Assembly: GCA_020353515.1 (NCBI GenBank)
Contig: CP070695.1
Coordinates: 246,458 to 256,505, forward strand
Length of the DNA: 10,048 nucleotides
DNA from: Candidatus Heimdallarchaeota archaeon
GTDB taxonomy: Archaea; Asgardarchaeota; Heimdallarchaeia; Hodarchaeales; Hodarchaeaceae
Reading direction: 5' to 3'
Every line of letters begins with the position of its first letter. Position 1 is the stretch's first letter. Below are positions 1,712 to 9,283 of the stretch, one piece after another. The notes under the pieces are model-generated. The model made no database searches. It was not told where the DNA came from and saw only the letters and a list, made by a program, of their open reading frames with translations. Made by a program: the position numbers and the translations under genes.

Positions 1712-1759
1712 TATGATTAAAATTTTACTTGATTATGTATAATGTAACAGAAAGAAAAT

Positions 1760-1766
1760 AGGAGTG
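1760..1766 (+). promoter_or_regulatory. Shine-Dalgarno site (AGGAGTG) of the 1398-aa gene
   Basis: AGGAGTG directly precedes ATG-TTG-ATG (1769/1772/1775). Spacing favours a true start at 1772 or 1775 rather than 1769. Confidence 0.6.
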
Positions 1767-1768
1767 TT

Positions 1769-4700
1769 ATGTTGATGTCAAATTCTGAAATTAGATATTC
1801 ATTATCTAAGTCTGAAAGTAAGCTGTTTTCATCATTAGTAAAACTTGGTGGTCAAACAAAACAAGAATTAGTACTCACTTGTAATATAAATGTTGAAAAA
1901 GCAGATGAAGCTCTTTTAACGTTAATTGATAAAGGATTTATCCAATTAGATGAGGATACAGGAATCTATTTAAAATCTCTTCCATTAGAAAGCGTTATAG
2001 CTCTTCTAAATGATAGCTCTGCAGATATTGAATCGAATAAAAAGGGTGTTGATGAAACTTTCCAAGGACATCGAAAATCAATCGATGAAAACTTAGGAAA
2101 ACTTCGTGAAACTCTTGAAAGCCAGTATGAGGAATTCAAAGCTTCAATTAATACACTACAAACTTCGTTGAAAGAAAAATTCGATGAAACAGAACAACAG
2201 AGAATAAAACAAACCGAAGAACTCACTGAAACATTACTATCGTCATTTTCTACGAATGTAACTGACTTACAAACCGAATTTCAAACCTCGGTGTCTACTG
2301 ATTCAGCAACATTCGAGAAAGAATGGATGAATGTTCTTGATGGTTTCCAAAGCATCCCTGAAACAGGTACACGTACTCTTAAAGGATCTATTACAAAATA
2401 TGAGAAAGAATTATCTGAAATTATCAAGTTAAGCGTGAAAAAAATAACATCTATTCAATCTCAATTATCAGATATTGTTACAGCAATTGAAACGGAATCT
2501 ACGAATCAGATTCAAGAATTCTTTGTTAATTCCAAATCATTTTCAGAAGAGTTCACAAAAAATGTAAACACAGGTTTACAAGAATCTAGGAAACAGGAAA
2601 GAGAATTTTTAAATGAGATTCGACAAAGATTGCAAGTGACATTGGGAGAAGAGATAATAAAAGCATTGGAGAGTGTTGTTAAAAATTTAGGGAAGGATAT
2701 TGACAAAGAAATCAACCAAGCTGTCGAAGAAGTTAAACAACAAACAAATAATGCCATCACTGATAGTTCAAACCAAATAAAGGCTGAATTTAAAGAATTC
2801 GTTGAAAATGCTTCTGAATTAATCCAGGAGCAAAAATCTTCTTTAGATGTCTTGAATACAGAACTAACGAAGTTATCTTCAGAGAAAAAGTTGACATCAC
2901 TTTCAGATACATTTAAGCGGCAATTACAGGCTCACTTGTCAGCAGATATGAATAGTTTGGAACTAAATTATCGTCGTGCACAAAAAGCAACTATTGACAT
3001 CATGGAAGAAATTCGTCGGGCAGCGAAAAAACGATTAATCCAGCAGAGTAAAGAGTTCGAAGGCCTCATTCATTCATTCAATACCATAATTGAGAAGTCA
3101 ATTGCGAGAAAAGATATGGATATTAGTCACCTCCAGCGATTATCTCAATCCATTGTCCAATTACTTGGAAATTTACTAATATCAGTTCCAATGCGATCTA
3201 ATAATTTTAAAACAATATTAAAAAACTCTATTAATAATTCTGTTTTGGAACTCAAGGAAGGAATGAGTGAAACATCATTAAATCCTGTTAAAGATATCTA
3301 TGATTCTTTATCAAGTACTCAGAAGAGAATTGAGACATCATTTAAGGAAACGAAGGAAGAGTGCCAAAAAGAGATTCGCAAAGCTATTAGTTCAACTACT
3401 CAATTGAACAGTACAGTCAATAATCTTCAAGAGGCTTTTTTAGAAAAAGTAGAACATAGATTTGAGCAAAGGGCAAAAGTTATGAACACAGAGCTAGAAG
3501 CTGTCGCCCGTAACTTTCAACAGGTTATAGACACAATGGAAGGAGGATTCGGGGATATCAATGATAGGTTCTCGGCTGAAAAAATCACTTTTAATCTTGA
3601 AACATCTCTTCAGAATTTAATCACTCAACTAAAGAATGATGTCGATCATGTTTTCACACAAAATCAAAAAGATTCTTCTGGATATATCACTCGGTTGGAC
3701 ACAACGTTACAAAGCCACCTTGATAGAACTCTTGATGTCATTAAAGAAGGTTTTAGCCAAATTAAAACCGAATTTACGATTGAATTGGAAGAACAGCTTA
3801 ATCAGATTAATAAAAGTAGTGAAAATCAACAGATCAACCTGAATACTATAATTGATTCGTTTTCTGGTCAAAATGTAGAGCAATTTACAAAATTTAAAAC
3901 TGATTTGAATAAGGCAATTGAAGAAAGTCAGAAAATAGTCACGGATTTCATTACCGAGAGTCAAAGGTCAACAACTGAAGTCGTAGATCTACAACAATCA
4001 AATATCGAAAAGTACCAAGAGAAAGGAACGAATGATATCTTATCTTTCATTAATCAGATCGAATCAGAAGTTTCAAATCAGAACCAGAAAGTGAAAGATG
4101 CGATGGATGAGCTTGAAACTTATTATAACACTTACTCTGATTCCACTTTTGGAGAGGTTAATAATCTATTTAGACAAGTTCAAGAAAGTGGAGACAAACT
4201 TACAGTATTAGTTACTGATTCTTTACAGAATGCTACTAGTTGTCTTGATAAGATCACAGAAGATCTCGATATTTATTATACAGACTCCTTTACAGATCTA
4301 GAAAACCAATTAAGCGTCACCACAGGTTTTGTCACCTCCGAAATTGAAAACTCTACCAAAACTGTTGAAGAGGAGGTAGTAACATTAAAAGGTGAGTTGT
4401 CTGAAGCTGTGGAAGGATTAAGTGCTGGTATCAGAGATCAGATCACTCGTCAAGATCAAGAATTCCAAACTAAAACCCCAGAACAGTCTCAGGAATTTAC
4501 TCAGGTCTTTGATGATATAATTCAAGAGCGCTCGCGTTCAAATCATGAGTTAGAGGAGAAAATCGATGAAAGTTTAGTAAAACTAATGCAGGACTGGAAT
4601 ACAGAGTTACAAAAGAGTAAATCGAGATTAAAGGATGTCTCAGACGCCATTAATAAAGCTATTGGAGCAAACCTCGAGAATTTAGAAATAATCGTGAAAA

Positions 4701-5965
4701 CCAACGTTGAAGAAACAATACAATCTTTGAGTGCAATCCTAGATCTAGAATCTTCCAAGGAAGATATCCTTGGATTACGTGAGATCCAAGAGAAAGTGAA
4801 ATTAGCAAATAAACGTCTGAAATCAGCAATATCTGAGAGTTTACAGTCACATATAGAACGAATTGACCAACAAATGGTTCCAGAATTGGTTACATCATAT
4901 GAAGCAGCCCATACCCAGACTGAGGAAGATCTCTCAACCTATCTAGAAGATTTGAGTGATTTAATATCTAGCTCACAAACGGCATATATTAATCAACTAC
5001 ATAAATATCTGAAGGAAGAACGTCAGAGCCTCGACTTCTCCGAGATGAAAGACGATCTAAATGAAATGTTAAGTGCTTTTTCGCAATCTACGACTGAGGA
5101 TGTTGAAGCTTTATCAGCAGACTTAGCTGATAGTATTCAACTGACCATCAAAGAGGTTGAAAAATCACGAGAACAGATTCAAAATCTCTTTTCCAAATTA
5201 TCGATATTAATGGTTGACCAGAATACAGCATTGCTAGAAAAACTAACAAAATTCAAGGAAGAGCTATCTACAACAGTTGATAACGTTAACAATGATTTTA
5301 AAAAGGATCTAGAAGCAAATCTCGACTCTTATAACACTGACCTCAATAAAAATTCCCTTGAGCTCACAGGAAAAGCCAACCAGATAACTCAGACTGTAAC
5401 AGAAGAGCTTGACGGTCAAATCTCGGAGGTACTAGATCGAACACATGTTCTTTTTGAAAATTTGATATCTACAAATGATCAACATATCAATACTTTACAA
5501 GAAATTGCTAGTGAGTTTTCTCGAGTTAAACCTGTTGATGTTATTCGATTGGTTAATTTACCTTCTGATGAGGCCAAAAATGAGTTTATCATCGAAATGA
5601 TCCATTCAGCATCTAAACAAATCTTCATTGTGACATCAAATCCGACATTCTTATCCGTAGCTGACTTGAAAGCAATTCCTTCAGAAAAGCGTATATTCAT
5701 AATCACTGACTTTGATTTTACTAAGAAGGGCAAAAAGTGGGTAACTGAGGTAGGTAAACAAGTTAACATTAATTTCTACAAATTAAAAACAAGTAAACTA
5801 TCAGGGATTCTAGTAATAAAGGATGAGAATTCAGTTTTAGTCTTACCCAATTCACTTGGTTTCACAAGCACAGATGAAAAACTTGTTTCCAATCTTTCTA
5901 GTATAACAAGTTTGCTTAAAGGGGCATCTCTTCGATTAAGAACACCAAAAAAGAAGAGCACTTAG
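1769..5965 (+). CDS. Giant coiled-coil protein with N-terminal TrmB-like winged helix-turn-helix and C-terminal PLD-like (TrmB effector-type) domain
   Basis: aa 10-75, LSKSESKLFSSLVKLGGQTKQELVLTCNINVEKADEALLTLIDKGFIQLDEDTGIYLKSLPLE, fits the TrmB wHTH pattern. aa 80-1255 is an E/Q/K/L/S-rich amphipathic helical region with only 5 internal prolines. aa 1257-1398, FIIEMIHSASKQIFIVTS...RIFIIT...GILVIKDENSVLV, fits the PLD-like fold of TrmB C-terminal domains. No Walker A/B motif, signal peptide or TM helix seen. Confidence 0.75.
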   Translation: MLMSNSEIRYSLSKSESKLFSSLVKLGGQTKQELVLTCNINVEKADEALLTLIDKGFIQLDEDTGIYLKSLPLESVIALLNDSSADIESNKKGVDETFQGHRKSIDENLGKLRETLESQYEEFKASINTLQTSLKEKFDETEQQRIKQTEELTETLLSSFSTNVTDLQTEFQTSVSTDSATFEKEWMNVLDGFQSIPETGTRTLKGSITKYEKELSEIIKLSVKKITSIQSQLSDIVTAIETESTNQIQEFFVNSKSFSEEFTKNVNTGLQESRKQEREFLNEIRQRLQVTLGEEIIKALESVVKNLGKDIDKEINQAVEEVKQQTNNAITDSSNQIKAEFKEFVENASELIQEQKSSLDVLNTELTKLSSEKKLTSLSDTFKRQLQAHLSADMNSLELNYRRAQKATIDIMEEIRRAAKKRLIQQSKEFEGLIHSFNTIIEKSIARKDMDISHLQRLSQSIVQLLGNLLISVPMRSNNFKTILKNSINNSVLELKEGMSETSLNPVKDIYDSLSSTQKRIETSFKETKEECQKEIRKAISSTTQLNSTVNNLQEAFLEKVEHRFEQRAKVMNTELEAVARNFQQVIDTMEGGFGDINDRFSAEKITFNLETSLQNLITQLKNDVDHVFTQNQKDSSGYITRLDTTLQSHLDRTLDVIKEGFSQIKTEFTIELEEQLNQINKSSENQQINLNTIIDSFSGQNVEQFTKFKTDLNKAIEESQKIVTDFITESQRSTTEVVDLQQSNIEKYQEKGTNDILSFINQIESEVSNQNQKVKDAMDELETYYNTYSDSTFGEVNNLFRQVQESGDKLTVLVTDSLQNATSCLDKITEDLDIYYTDSFTDLENQLSVTTGFVTSEIENSTKTVEEEVVTLKGELSEAVEGLSAGIRDQITRQDQEFQTKTPEQSQEFTQVFDDIIQERSRSNHELEEKIDESLVKLMQDWNTELQKSKSRLKDVSDAINKAIGANLENLEIIVKTNVEETIQSLSAILDLESSKEDILGLREIQEKVKLANKRLKSAISESLQSHIERIDQQMVPELVTSYEAAHTQTEEDLSTYLEDLSDLISSSQTAYINQLHKYLKEERQSLDFSEMKDDLNEMLSAFSQSTTEDVEALSADLADSIQLTIKEVEKSREQIQNLFSKLSILMVDQNTALLEKLTKFKEELSTTVDNVNNDFKKDLEANLDSYNTDLNKNSLELTGKANQITQTVTEELDGQISEVLDRTHVLFENLISTNDQHINTLQEIASEFSRVKPVDVIRLVNLPSDEAKNEFIIEMIHSASKQIFIVTSNPTFLSVADLKAIPSEKRIFIITDFDFTKKGKKWVTEVGKQVNINFYKLKTSKLSGILVIKDENSVLVLPNSLGFTSTDEKLVSNLSSITSLLKGASLRLRTPKKKST

Positions 5966-5977
5966 GATAATATCTAT

Positions 5978-7798
5978 TTAGATAGTGATTAATCCTAGTA
6001 ATCCCGCTTTTTTCAAGGTTTTTTTGTTTACTAATCCTTTCTGAGTCAGACCTTTTCTAGCGTAATATTCTGTAAGCAACTCATCTTGCATCTTGAAAAA
6101 GTCAGGCCTTTTTTTAAGAAACAGGGGAAAGCGATCCTCTTCTCTAGCCATCCCTGTTCGTGTGTTAAAAATTCGTTCTAAAAGTGTTATTCGATTGCCA
6201 ATTGTTAATAATTTATTAAAAGTCAGATCTTGATCAGAAATGTTCCTCAACAAAGGACGTAAATTGTGTAGTTCTAATCCGAAATTCCCAATTAAAATGT
6301 CAGGAATTAGATTGAAGAGGTTATTGCGGAGATTAGGTGATAACCATCTGAATATTCGACGAACATCTAGGAGAAAGGGGAGATATCTAGAACAAAGTAC
6401 AAGAGAATCGAGAACTGCAACTAATTTTTCAAGGAGTATGATAGTTTTAATTTTTCCTCGCTTAGAACTTGGATTAAGCTTGAACGGAAAACCTAGAAGT
6501 TCGGGAAAGATCATATAATCCGACCGAAAGTTATCAGCTCCGTATGGGGAAGTACTACTAGCCAAACTTAACCCTAAAATGTTAGGATAATAAAACATTC
6601 CTGCCATTTGACCTTTAATCATTGGAGATGGTTCACTGGTCTGTTGATAAAGATAAATCTCACCACGAGATAATTGATCGCCCATTTCTTCTCTTTTAAT
6701 GATTTTTTCAATCAAAGAATAGATTTTGGGATTACTCCAATTATACCCAAGATCAATATCTAATAATTTTCTTCTATCTTCTTGAATATTAAATAATGAA
6801 GCTAGTGCAGCTCCTGTAGATAATGGATCCAAAGCCTCCTGATCACAGGATTCAATAGCTTTTTGGATATTTTCTATGTCAACAATCTTTAAATTTGGAC
6901 CTAATGCCACGAAATCTTGGTATGAACAACGGAGACAATGTACAGGACATTGCCAACACTGAAGCGGTTCTCCATAACCTCTAAAAGATGATACTTTTTC
7001 TTGGGATATTTGTAATAAACGAGAACAATTTTTGGCTGGAAGAATAGTGTTTTCAATGATAGAAAACATTATTGAAAATGGTCCACGGTTACGAAGCATG
7101 TTATACCATTTTGATAGTTCAATTGATTTGTTAAATTGATCAGTATCTTCGTGTGATAACCCCTCTAGTTCTCGGGTCTCTGGGGTCTCAGTTATTACGA
7201 TTGCTTTGATGTTCTTTGAAGCCAAAACCGCTCCTAATCCTCCACGTCGAAAAAAATGAACACGGTCAACTGCTACGCCAGCATAAGTAACTTGGTTTAC
7301 AGCTGACATACCTATAACTGCAATGCTAGAGTCTTTCCCATATTTGGTTCGTAACCATTTATCCGCTTCCAATACATTTTTCTTCCAAATTGGCTCTGCA
7401 TTCTCAAGTGTTATATCAGAAAACTCATCTATTAAAATATATTTTGGAGTTTTGGCGCATCCTAAAATTTGGAAGAAATCTAAACCCACTTGCTTCAAAC
7501 TCGCGCCGAATCGCCCAGTAGCAATAGAAGTAAACAAAGTATTAGTCTGAGGAGATTTAAAAGTGGCAACAGCCATACCAGATGACGGAAACATCGTTGC
7601 AGTAAGAATTCCTGTCCCAAAAATTACCGAATTATCGGGTCCACGTGGACTAGCATCTGTAGGAATTGATTGATAACCAAGATAAACAGTAATTCCACGA
7701 CCACCAAGAAAATTTTCAATAATTCTTGTTTCAATTTTTACTGTTGGCAAAATTTTATCTTCTGTCAGGTCAAGTATTACTAATTGTGGGTTCCACAT
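5978..7798 (-). CDS. Aldehyde:ferredoxin oxidoreductase (AOR/WOR tungstopterin) family protein, divergent
   Basis: Motifs FLGGRG, FKSPQT, FGASLKQVGLD, RGGLGAVLASKNIKAI, CWQCPVHC (4Fe-4S), DPLSTG, GDQLSRG, DSLVLC (fourth Cys ligand), GNRITLLERIFN, EDRFP and EYYARKG. 606 aa is the normal AOR length. AGGTG lies upstream (about 7810-7814, minus strand). Confidence 0.9.
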   Translation of the reverse strand: MWNPQLVILDLTEDKILPTVKIETRIIENFLGGRGITVYLGYQSIPTDASPRGPDNSVIFGTGILTATMFPSSGMAVATFKSPQTNTLFTSIATGRFGASLKQVGLDFFQILGCAKTPKYILIDEFSDITLENAEPIWKKNVLEADKWLRTKYGKDSSIAVIGMSAVNQVTYAGVAVDRVHFFRRGGLGAVLASKNIKAIVITETPETRELEGLSHEDTDQFNKSIELSKWYNMLRNRGPFSIMFSIIENTILPAKNCSRLLQISQEKVSSFRGYGEPLQCWQCPVHCLRCSYQDFVALGPNLKIVDIENIQKAIESCDQEALDPLSTGAALASLFNIQEDRRKLLDIDLGYNWSNPKIYSLIEKIIKREEMGDQLSRGEIYLYQQTSEPSPMIKGQMAGMFYYPNILGLSLASSTSPYGADNFRSDYMIFPELLGFPFKLNPSSKRGKIKTIILLEKLVAVLDSLVLCSRYLPFLLDVRRIFRWLSPNLRNNLFNLIPDILIGNFGLELHNLRPLLRNISDQDLTFNKLLTIGNRITLLERIFNTRTGMAREEDRFPLFLKKRPDFFKMQDELLTEYYARKGLTQKGLVNKKTLKKAGLLGLITI

Positions 7799-7828: not shown

Positions 7829-9283
7829 TTATATGAGATTGGAATATTTCGTGGTGAATTGTCTTTTTGGACATGATATATCTTCGATATTTGTACCAAC
7901 AACTTCATTATTGAAAAGAAAGAGTTCTAATAACCTTGTTAATACAATTGAATCACACTCTTCCCGAGAACGATCTCTAAAGTCCCATAATGTTAAGTAC
8001 CATTTTTCTTGCTGGAATTTTTCTTTATCGATAGCACAATCTTCTTTTTCTTGTTTGGATTTACTTTTATAATTGAATTTTCCCTTTTGAAAAAGTAAAA
8101 CCTCGTAGAAGCAATGGTCAAATACTATTTTAGATTTAAATTGACTAATAACTTCCCACTGTGCTTCTGGCTGGTGTTGAATCGTTATTTTGTCACGGAG
8201 GCGTAATCCATGTTTCATAACATGATCTGTTAGTTTATTAAGAGACAAATTGGATACAGAATTATCTAAAGAGTCATGCATAACTGCTAAAATGCGGCCA
8301 GGAAATAGGTTGTCAATTAATTTTGAAAATTTTTCATTGAGGGCAGTATTAGGAATATTTCTGCAATTTAAGACTAATAAATGATAATTATAATTATTGA
8401 TGGGTTTATATTCATTTAAAGCTTGAGGTAGAAAGGAATAATTCGTTTTCTCTCTTTGGTTGTTGCTTTTTATTCGAATTTTCTCCAATTGTAAAATATC
8501 GTCACTTATAGGGTCTGAATCAAAGAAATTATCGAGATTTTTTATTGAAAATCCTGATTTCTCACGAATTACAGGGATAAGTTCTTCTAGGATTTCTACT
8601 CCAATTGAGTTTCGCTTGAGTTGCCGTGCGACTTTCATTGTAGTTCCTGAACCTAGAAATGGGTCACAAATCCATGCTCCTTTTTGGGTAAAAATCTTGA
8701 TAAGTTTGCTAGGTAGTTCATCTGGAAAAGCAGCAATATTAGTTTCAAGTCGTCCCTTCAGAGGTAAAACATTAGTTATTTCCCAAATATCCTGATATGA
8801 ATTTATTTCATCTTTAGTAAGTTTTAACGGAGATGGTTTCTGAAATATAAGAATATTTTCAAGCAAGTTGTCGGGATAATAATACATGGGATACGGATTT
8901 TGTAATAAGACACCACTTCGCCTACTAATACGAATGTATCCTTCAGGCTTCCTCCAAACAATCTTTCCTCTTAAGATATAACCCGTATTAAAGAATATTT
9001 TAATCGTATCAGAGATAATCGGATATTTAACACTTTTAATCAGCATATCATCGATATTAAGACCGATGATACCACCTGGCTTTAAAGCTTTGAAATACAA
9101 ATCCGCAAATTTATTCATCATATGTAAGAAGGCTTCATAATTTTCAAAAAGTTCATCATAATCAAAAGGAGCATTAAAATATGGAGGAGATGTCACTAAA
9201 AGGTCAATTGCTGGCAGATTGAGAATTTCAGTTGCTTTGGTACAATCTCCAATTAAAAGGTAGTGTTTTGTTGGGAAAGACAT
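7829..9283 (-). CDS. Beta-class amino-DNA methyltransferase (N6_N4_Mtase; SPPY suggests m4C) with a degenerate second MTase-like domain at the C-terminus
   Basis: Motif IV IDLLVTSPPYF (about 9179-9190), LKPGG, ENILIFQK, DIWEI, AAFPDELP, motif I ICDPFLGSGTT (about 8645-8665) and RNSIGVEI. Motif IV before motif I is the beta order. aa 300-484 echoes the same fold without the catalytic motifs. Confidence 0.92.
   Translation of the reverse strand: MSFPTKHYLLIGDCTKATEILNLPAIDLLVTSPPYFNAPFDYDELFENYEAFLHMMNKFADLYFKALKPGGIIGLNIDDMLIKSVKYPIISDTIKIFFNTGYILRGKIVWRKPEGYIRISRRSGVLLQNPYPMYYYPDNLLENILIFQKPSPLKLTKDEINSYQDIWEITNVLPLKGRLETNIAAFPDELPSKLIKIFTQKGAWICDPFLGSGTTMKVARQLKRNSIGVEILEELIPVIREKSGFSIKNLDNFFDSDPISDDILQLEKIRIKSNNQREKTNYSFLPQALNEYKPINNYNYHLLVLNCRNIPNTALNEKFSKLIDNLFPGRILAVMHDSLDNSVSNLSLNKLTDHVMKHGLRLRDKITIQHQPEAQWEVISQFKSKIVFDHCFYEVLLFQKGKFNYKSKSKQEKEDCAIDKEKFQQEKWYLTLWDFRDRSREECDSIVLTRLLELFLFNNEVVGTNIEDISCPKRQFTTKYSNLI

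Follow-up and report, generated by a model that had tools for sequence, protein, structure and literature searches.

A giant TrmB-like protein of a Heimdallarchaeota archaeon with a putative fold-back hendecad rod

The window analyzed here, a 10,048-nucleotide stretch of a Candidatus Heimdallarchaeota archaeon genome (contig CP070695.1, positions 246,458-256,505; G+C content approximately 34%), carries a gene that raises a simple question: what might a TrmB-type protein do with a helical rod of about 1170 residues between its two end domains? The gene for this TrmB-like rod protein lies at positions 1769..5965 (+ strand) and is open for 1398 codons. Its start is probably the ATG at 1775, giving a product of 1396 amino acids (aa): most orthologues and the database copy start at this codon (M3), and residues 1-2 are missing in 20 of the 26 aligned orthologues. 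The original prediction, made from the letters alone, described a winged helix-turn-helix (wHTH) and a PLD-like domain at opposite ends of a continuous acidic coiled coil and suggested a chromosome organizer or DNA bridge. The overall best explanation, held here with moderate confidence, is that of a structural protein derived from TrmB/TrmBL2, folded back on itself as a rod and acting as a spacer or tether of fixed length.

The N-terminal domain (aa 10-72; positions 1796..1984, + strand) is a wHTH of the TrmB/TrmBL2 type, as first proposed. The Pfam domain TrmB (PF01978) matches aa 10-64 with 28.0 bits when aa 1-110 are scanned alone and with 23.5 bits in the whole-protein scan; the gathering cut-off (25.6 bits) is passed in the former and missed in the latter. 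A search of PDB sequences with the single N-terminal sequence returned nothing useful, and a family profile was required. With such a profile (window protein plus distant relatives), the two top-ranking solved structures are TrmBL2 (5bpd, E-value: 3e-15) and TrmB (3qph, E-value: 6e-12). AlphaFold2 predicts three helices and a beta-wing (helices at aa 14-26, 31-38 and 42-55; strands at aa 58-61 and 66-69) with a predicted local distance difference test score (pLDDT) of 75-80. The domain is unusually acidic: the net charge of the HTH and wing is -4 (median of 27 orthologues), compared to +3 for the aligned segment of TrmBL2 and -3 to +3 for other Asgard members. In the orthologue group of the window protein, E-K-A-D-E and D-E-D stand where basic residues are usual, and by this charge comparison the protein lacks a basic recognition helix and wing of the TrmBL2 type. 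Because the HTH-wing is acidic, the DNA-anchor premise behind the proposed chromosome organizer or DNA bridge is weakened, and anchoring through the winged helix appears doubtful for this paralogue.

The C-terminal domain (aa 1256-1387; positions 5534..5929, + strand) is a PLD-like alpha/beta domain of the TrmB type, again in agreement with the original prediction. The last 249 residues were modelled by AlphaFold2 from the 27 orthologues with a mean pLDDT of 80, rising to approximately 90 over aa 1259-1387. The six top Foldseek matches of this model are chains of TrmB (3qph and 2f5t) and TrmBL2 (5bpd, 5bpi and 5bqt), with E-values of 2.5e-7 to 1e-6; TrmB is the best match (E-value: 2.5e-7), and NucT, vaccinia F13, PLD and Zucchini rank below. 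The TrmBL2 matches have E-values of 7e-7 to 1e-5 and 10-15% identity. The catalytic HxK(x)4D motif is absent from the domain, and its sole histidine (H1279) is not conserved. The second, sugar-binding subdomain of TrmB proper is also lacking. The C-terminal domain is only about 130 aa in length, which leaves no room for it, the protein ends approximately 10 residues past the PLD-like fold and the alignment spans 142 columns of the 233-residue chain 2f5t. Pfam PF11495 (Regulator_TrmB) has no match in aa 1230-1398 even at E-values up to 10 and none in eight distant relatives. The claim that this is not a simple sugar-sensing repressor is supported.

Unlike the winged helix, the PLD-like domain is basic (median net charge approximately +5). 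It carries a basic loop, D-F-D-F-T-K-K-G-K-K-W (aa 1314-1324; positions 5708..5740, + strand), that is specific to the orthologue group and missing from distant family members in the alignment. F1317, K1319, G1321 and W1324 are invariant in this loop, and K1320, K1322 and K1323 are at least 90% conserved. The domain is followed by a short basic tail (aa 1388-1398; positions 5930..5962, + strand; median net charge +3 among the 27 orthologues) that is poorly conserved and has low pLDDT. Because the winged helix is acidic while the PLD-like domain, with its KKGKKW loop and tail, is basic, it is probable that the head of this paralogue now binds in a different way.

Between the end domains, aa 73-1252 are predicted by AlphaFold2 to be almost wholly helical. 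The rod is made up of an N-arm (aa 73-655; positions 1985..3733, + strand), an apex or hinge (aa 656-666, VIKEGFSQIKT; positions 3734..3766, + strand) and a C-arm (aa 667-1252; positions 3767..5524, + strand). It has a net charge of -79 and contains 6 prolines in 1170 aa. No Walker A, HKD or CxxC motif, no transmembrane segment and no SMC or AAA Pfam match was found in the whole protein, so the predicted absence of an ATPase and a membrane anchor holds. The description of the rod as a continuous coiled coil with no hinge is not accurate. The rod is indeed acidic and helical, but its repeat is a hendecad rather than a heptad, and conserved breaks interrupt it, including one precisely at its midpoint.

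The hydrophobic period of the rod is 3.66-3.70 overall, with a power of 141 for the single sequence (shuffles: at most 86) and 265 for the alignment profile. In each 110-residue window the best period is 3.58-3.78 (power 65-187), while the power at 3.5 is only 0.2-24; the canonical heptad (3.5) is thus absent and the hendecad (11/3) present. When segments are folded modulo 11, four hydrophobic positions with 3-1-3-4 spacing (a-d-e-h) emerge in five of the six phase-continuous segments. In the sixth (aa 380-450), three positions exceed the mark of 0.35 and the fourth reaches 0.33. Conserved breaks or phase jumps are found near aa 372, 454 and 602 in the N-arm, at aa 656-662, and near aa 997 and 1088 in the C-arm. 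They largely coincide with AlphaFold2 helix breaks, and the hydrophobic stripe runs unbroken over 75-390 residues between jumps.

At the apex, E660, F662, Q664 and K666 are invariant and G661 is present in 25 of the 27 orthologues; the AlphaFold2 helix is broken at aa 656-662 and pLDDT falls below 50 over aa 653-666. The arms are nearly equal in length (587 residues for the N-arm and, measured from G661 to the rod end, 591 for the C-arm). This length is tightly maintained. The 27 full-length orthologues (41-83% identity) have eight rod indel sites of 1-3 residues each, all at Gly/Pro helix breaks, and the net change in rod length is at most 3 residues.

The strongest indication of how the arms are arranged comes from a mirror test, in which the smoothed (and also detrended) conservation profile was correlated with its own mirror image at all possible centres, each denoted by S = i+j. 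The rod ends (aa 73 and 1252) were used to fix a window of S = 1316-1336 in advance; their midpoint of approximately 662 matches the AlphaFold2 break and E660-G661-F662. A sharp and unique peak is found at S = 1321 (centre 660.5; r = 0.64-0.66 over 440-580 pairs), and it is robust to detrending and to deliberately asymmetric choices of region. Among 1000 phase-randomized surrogates, p is 0.013 for the maximum over all S, and none of the 1000 reaches the peak within the preset window (p<0.001). Three subclades independently give S = 1318-1323, and all six 95-residue blocks along the arms correlate positively at S = 1321 (r = 0.28-0.78). The symmetry recurs in a Thorarchaeota-type length class of approximately 1299 aa (22 proteins of 1288-1302 aa, 22-34% identity to the first member of the class, 1308 alignment columns), where S = 1242 compared to the 1248 predicted from the rod midpoint (p = 0.003 in the preset window). 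Because conservation is mirror-symmetric about the midpoint, the arms are proposed to pair antiparallel, residue i with residue 1321-i. Co-folding of aa 1-300 with aa 1021-1398 gave a score of 0.34 (best of three controls: 0.00), a pass that is classed as weak, as are all those at or below 0.60. The mark is reached by 58 of 80 solved complexes and by 2 of 110 mismatched pairs; the runs share at least 79% of contacts, and partner pLDDT is at least 68. The most likely shape is therefore a fold-back rod that measures approximately 88 nm and carries its winged helix next to its PLD-like domain. Of the two lengths that had been offered for the rod, about 85 nm folded back and about 175 nm extended, the mirror symmetry about residue 660.5 favours the former and not the latter.

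Several observations weigh against this fold-back rod. In four smaller length classes, with only five sequences each, the mirror test gave p-values of 0.05, 0.06, 0.23 and 0.97. Mutual-information covariation between the arms (27 sequences) has no peak at S = 1321, its top z of 2.07 lying elsewhere, and the largest hendecad phase jumps (372, 454, 602, 997 and 1088) are not mirror-paired. When hendecad amplitude is used in place of conservation, the mirror correlation is likewise not significant. The AlphaFold2 model of aa 1-1200 consists of helices only and is of low confidence (pLDDT 60; predicted template modelling score 0.24), so as a prediction it does not settle the shape. The gene also has no informative operon partner, and the order of the surrounding genes (DegT, YggS, rod gene and AFOR; described below) is genus-level synteny only. 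The hydrophobic stripe, moreover, passes the apex in phase and is continuous over residues 650-670, as it would be in an antiparallel homodimer. Such a dimer, in which two chains lie head to tail in an extended rod of approximately 175 nm, predicts the same mirror symmetry (i with 1321-i) and would fit it equally well, and the a-d-e-h core leaves the number of strands open to either arrangement. Each end would then combine the winged helix of one chain with the PLD-like domain of the other, so that the rod would have a binding head at either end and could bridge two sites. This arrangement is unlikely. Two-fold symmetry by itself would not call for a conserved break that contains glycine, but E660-G661-F662 occupies the exact centre and the AlphaFold2 helix is broken there. 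It is because of the position of this break that the homodimer is ranked below the fold-back rod. TrmB and TrmBL2, furthermore, keep both end domains within one compact chain.

Other arrangements of the rod are less probable still. If the rod were a single long helix or formed a parallel in-register dimer, the end domains would stand approximately 175 nm apart, and the protein could act as a DNA bridge or a DNA-linked filament. In favour of this, the rod is long, proline-poor and amphipathic, and the linker in TrmB is described as a dimerization helix. A parallel in-register dimer predicts no mirror symmetry, though, whereas the observed peak at the midpoint is sharp; the equal arms (587 and 591 residues) and the acidic winged helix also argue against this arrangement, which is very unlikely. 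Marginally less credible again is a coat of apolipoprotein- or perilipin-like amphipathic helices on a lipid surface, such as a membrane protrusion or lipid droplet, with the TrmB-type ends as adaptors. Pfam Apolipoprotein (PF01442) matches the window protein with 70.4 bits (below the cut-off of 90) and two relatives with 114 and 103 bits, the rod has an 11-residue repeat, and a profile of the C-terminal end of the rod plus the PLD-like domain weakly matches apoA-I in the PDB. In that PDB search, the profile found apolipoproteins only, and only through its rod part. The sub-threshold matches are attributed to the 11-residue periodicity of the rod, and matches among helical repeats are prone to composition bias. 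The helices are hundreds of residues long and lack the proline punctuation found every 22 residues in apolipoproteins (6 prolines in 1170 aa), the net charge of -79 speaks against binding to anionic membranes, and mirror-symmetric conservation with a strictly fixed length points to self-pairing. Finally, the protein could be an ordinary sequence-specific regulator of the TrmB family whose long helical insert forms a sensory or oligomerization module of compact bundles. Both end domains do belong to that family, and relatives are named 'sugar-specific transcriptional regulator TrmB' in databases. Nevertheless, the basic residues that TrmBL2 has in its recognition helix and wing are missing here, no sugar-binding barrel follows the PLD-like domain and PF11495 is unmatched. 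A single mirror register extends over the whole rod rather than several local ones, and the family is near-universal with several paralogues per genome. An ordinary regulator is the most improbable of these readings.

The proposed model for the fold-back rod is as follows. The helix that joins the winged helix to the PLD-like domain would have expanded into two length-matched arms of approximately 590 residues with an 11-residue (a-d-e-h) repeat. These arms would pair antiparallel and turn at the conserved apex, E660-G661-F662. The resulting molecule would be a stiff, strongly acidic rod of approximately 88 nm, with both TrmB-type end domains forming a head and the apex at the opposite end. 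Rod length varies by no more than 3 residues across the genus. The protein most likely functions as a fixed-length spacer or tether between the target of the head and the target of the apex, rather than as a ligand-sensing repressor; we infer this function from the predicted architecture. In this Hodarchaeales paralogue, the winged helix has lost its basic residues, and the head is therefore more likely to bind through the PLD-like domain, which is basic, together with the KKGKKW loop and the C-terminal tail. The target of that domain could be nucleic acid or an acidic surface.

TrmBL2, a nucleoid-associated protein of the Thermococcales (5bpd, 5bpi, 5bqt and 5box), is the closest characterized protein. 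It has the same order of winged helix, helix and PLD-like domain and lacks a sugar-binding barrel. In Thermococcus, it is reported to stall SMC and to assemble into stiff filaments along DNA (PMC11840125). TrmBL2 is approximately 264 aa in length with a linker helix of about 30 residues, whereas the window protein is 1398 aa with a linker of about 1180 residues in two arms; the HTH-wing charges are opposite (+3 and -4), and C-terminal identity is just 10-15%. TrmB, a sugar sensor (3qph and 2f5t), shares PF01978 at the N-terminus and provides the best structural match at the C-terminus but has the second, sugar-binding subdomain, and the linker of the window protein is 40 times longer.

The arms of SMC, Rad50 and MukB are, as predicted for the window protein, long intramolecular antiparallel helical arms with the ends joined as a head and a conserved apex. 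This is an analogy only. These proteins have an ABC ATPase head, a hinge domain or zinc hook, heptads and an arm of approximately 50 nm; the window protein has none of these features, is hendecad-based, would measure approximately 88 nm and has no homology to them. The tetrabrachion stalk and the Streptomyces proteins Scy and FilP are very long rods with 11-residue-based a-d-e-h cores that serve as rigid spacers or cytoskeletal scaffolds. They are parallel homo-oligomers without TrmB-type end domains, and Scy and FilP have a 51-residue unit (period 3.64). The period of the window rod is 3.66-3.67, and no sequence relationship to Scy, FilP or tetrabrachion is known. The exchangeable apolipoproteins (PF01442) share the 11-residue amphipathic periodicity and give weak profile matches, but the window rod does not have their proline-punctuated 22-mers. 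This likeness is most likely a convergence of composition and periodicity.

The rod protein is one member of a much larger family. A profile built from the last 250 residues of diverse members matched 781 clusters in a library that holds 1.84 billion proteins. Among Asgard genomes with a completeness of at least 85%, a match was present in 267 of 268; the figures were 89 of 90 for high-quality genomes and 67 of 67 for genera sampled. The window gene itself is found by the family profile with an E-value of 5.5e-77. The best matches listed are mostly ORFs of 750-1800 aa, and the named members are all from Asgard metagenome-assembled genomes (MAGs): Hodarchaeota, Heimdallarchaeota, Thorarchaeota, Helarchaeota, Freyarchaeota and Baldrarchaeia. 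The layout is common to the family and consists of a TrmB wHTH, several hundred to 1600 residues of hendecad helix and a PLD-like domain, with a length that is fixed per lineage. The hendecad rod (best period 3.65-3.68) recurs in twelve distant Asgard ORFs of 747-1757 aa, whose PLD-like C-termini also align, and the Pfam TrmB winged helix scores above its cut-off in seven of the eight distant relatives scanned. No paper describing the giant TrmB-rod family was found in a literature search, in keeping with the view that the protein is undescribed.

Within this family, the window gene has a narrow range. In a phylum survey with the orthologue profile, full-length orthologues were found in 21 of 21 genomes of the genus and in neither of the two sister-family genomes; outside the genus there were partial matches in long ORFs. 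Three of the orthologue matches (G074:C52, G070:C12 and G069:C22) each contain one in-frame TGA or TAG, which may reflect sequencing errors, pseudogenes or read-through. The closest database relatives, down to 41% identity, are all 1389-1418 aa proteins of Asgard MAGs labelled Hodarchaeales or Heimdallarchaeota. The genome that carries the window, a single contig of 4.94 Mb, has only one copy at the level of similarity detected by a whole-protein search but encodes five further family members (1535, 800, 774 and 715 aa and an ordinary TrmB of 326 aa). When the end domains are compared, the window protein proves the most divergent of all, with 31-55 bits to any protein that is not an orthologue, compared to 84-219 bits for the other paralogues. 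Judging by these comparisons, the window gene is a divergent, genus-restricted paralogue of an Asgard-wide family.

The surroundings of the other family members were also recorded. The gene for the 800-aa paralogue (G000:C1:4,608,767-4,611,169, - strand; L047:4768-7170), which has a TrmB wHTH (35.5 bits) and a period of 3.67, has smc and a 229-aa ORF to one side, two ScpB-family genes to the other and a Ras-like GTPase gene close by. In the genus, 16 loci have a complete rod gene; all of them retain at least one of these flanking genes, and 14 retain genes on both sides, compared to none of the 12 loci from other families of the class. Ras/Rab-like small GTPase genes lie approximately 0.5-2.2 kb from the 800-, 715- and 774-aa paralogues (L047:9318-9854, L048:3612-4139 and L049:7732-8286). 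Only one of the three is confirmed by Pfam (Ras, 164 bits), and none lies near the window gene. The gene for the 1535-aa paralogue (G000:C1:882,946-887,553, + strand; L046:4947-9554) lies 7.7 kb from a pair of genes on the opposite strand encoding a 576-aa STAND-like ATPase (AAA_16, 34.6 bits) and a hendecad protein of 718 aa (G000:C1:~895,296-899,197, - strand; L038:6297-10198). In three Heimdall-type genomes (L028, L029 and L030), the homologues of all three genes (ATPase, hendecad protein and giant rod) form a tight operon. Membership of the window gene in such an ATPase-hendecad-rod system was considered and dropped: the ATPase pair is 650 kb away, and among the rods of this genome it is the 1535-aa paralogue, not the window gene, that comes closest to the operon-type rods by end-domain similarity. 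Family members of approximately 1300 aa in G116 and G113 (two Asgard families) have a homologous DUF4139-type gene upstream (L031:12500-13888 and L033:8171-9190) in place of the ATPase and hendecad pair.

A bolder extension of the fold-back rod, which is quite unlikely, would make the protein an ATP-independent counterpart of the SMC/Rad50 arm. The heads would sit on the nucleoid or on an acidic surface, and the EGF apexes of two rods would join each other or dock onto a partner, giving a tether of 88 or approximately 175 nm; together with its paralogues, the protein would form an Asgard-specific scaffold that spaces or compartmentalizes the nucleoid. The location of one paralogue in the smc-scpB cluster and of another near the STAND-like ATPase is cited for this proposal.

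The neighbours of the rod gene in the window are a DegT-type aminotransferase gene (positions 1-876, - strand), a gene for a YggS-family pyridoxal phosphate protein directly upstream (positions 1019-1711, + strand; GTG start), an aldehyde:ferredoxin oxidoreductase (AFOR) gene (positions 5978-7798, - strand) and an N6/N4 DNA methylase gene (positions 7829-9283, - strand). The YggS and rod genes are separated by a 57-bp spacer (positions 1712..1768, + strand) that, as read from the sequence, is A+T-rich with TATA-like runs and has GGAG at 1761-1764. This gene pair is kept in all 11 genus loci with sufficiently long flanks. The order DegT-YggS-rod gene-AFOR is conserved within the genus only and, as genus-level synteny, is not read as an indication of functional linkage. 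In the methylase (484 aa), the N6/N4 DNA methylase domain covers aa 26-239. The C-terminal 245 residues have no Pfam match, and the window shows no restriction enzyme as a partner.

For the window gene, an annotation as a 'TrmB regulator' is misleading. The fold-back geometry is distinguishable by contour length, 88 nm compared to 175 nm. Because the family is near-universal, usually with several paralogues per genome and a rod length that is nearly constant in each lineage, it appears to be a core but uncharacterized component of Asgard cell architecture with its origin in a chromatin protein. Asgard archaea are the closest prokaryotic relatives of eukaryotes, and it is in this setting that the nucleoid-scaffold proposal is made. 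If these rods do tether or space DNA, membranes or scaffolds, they would bear on how cellular organization grew complex before eukaryotes.

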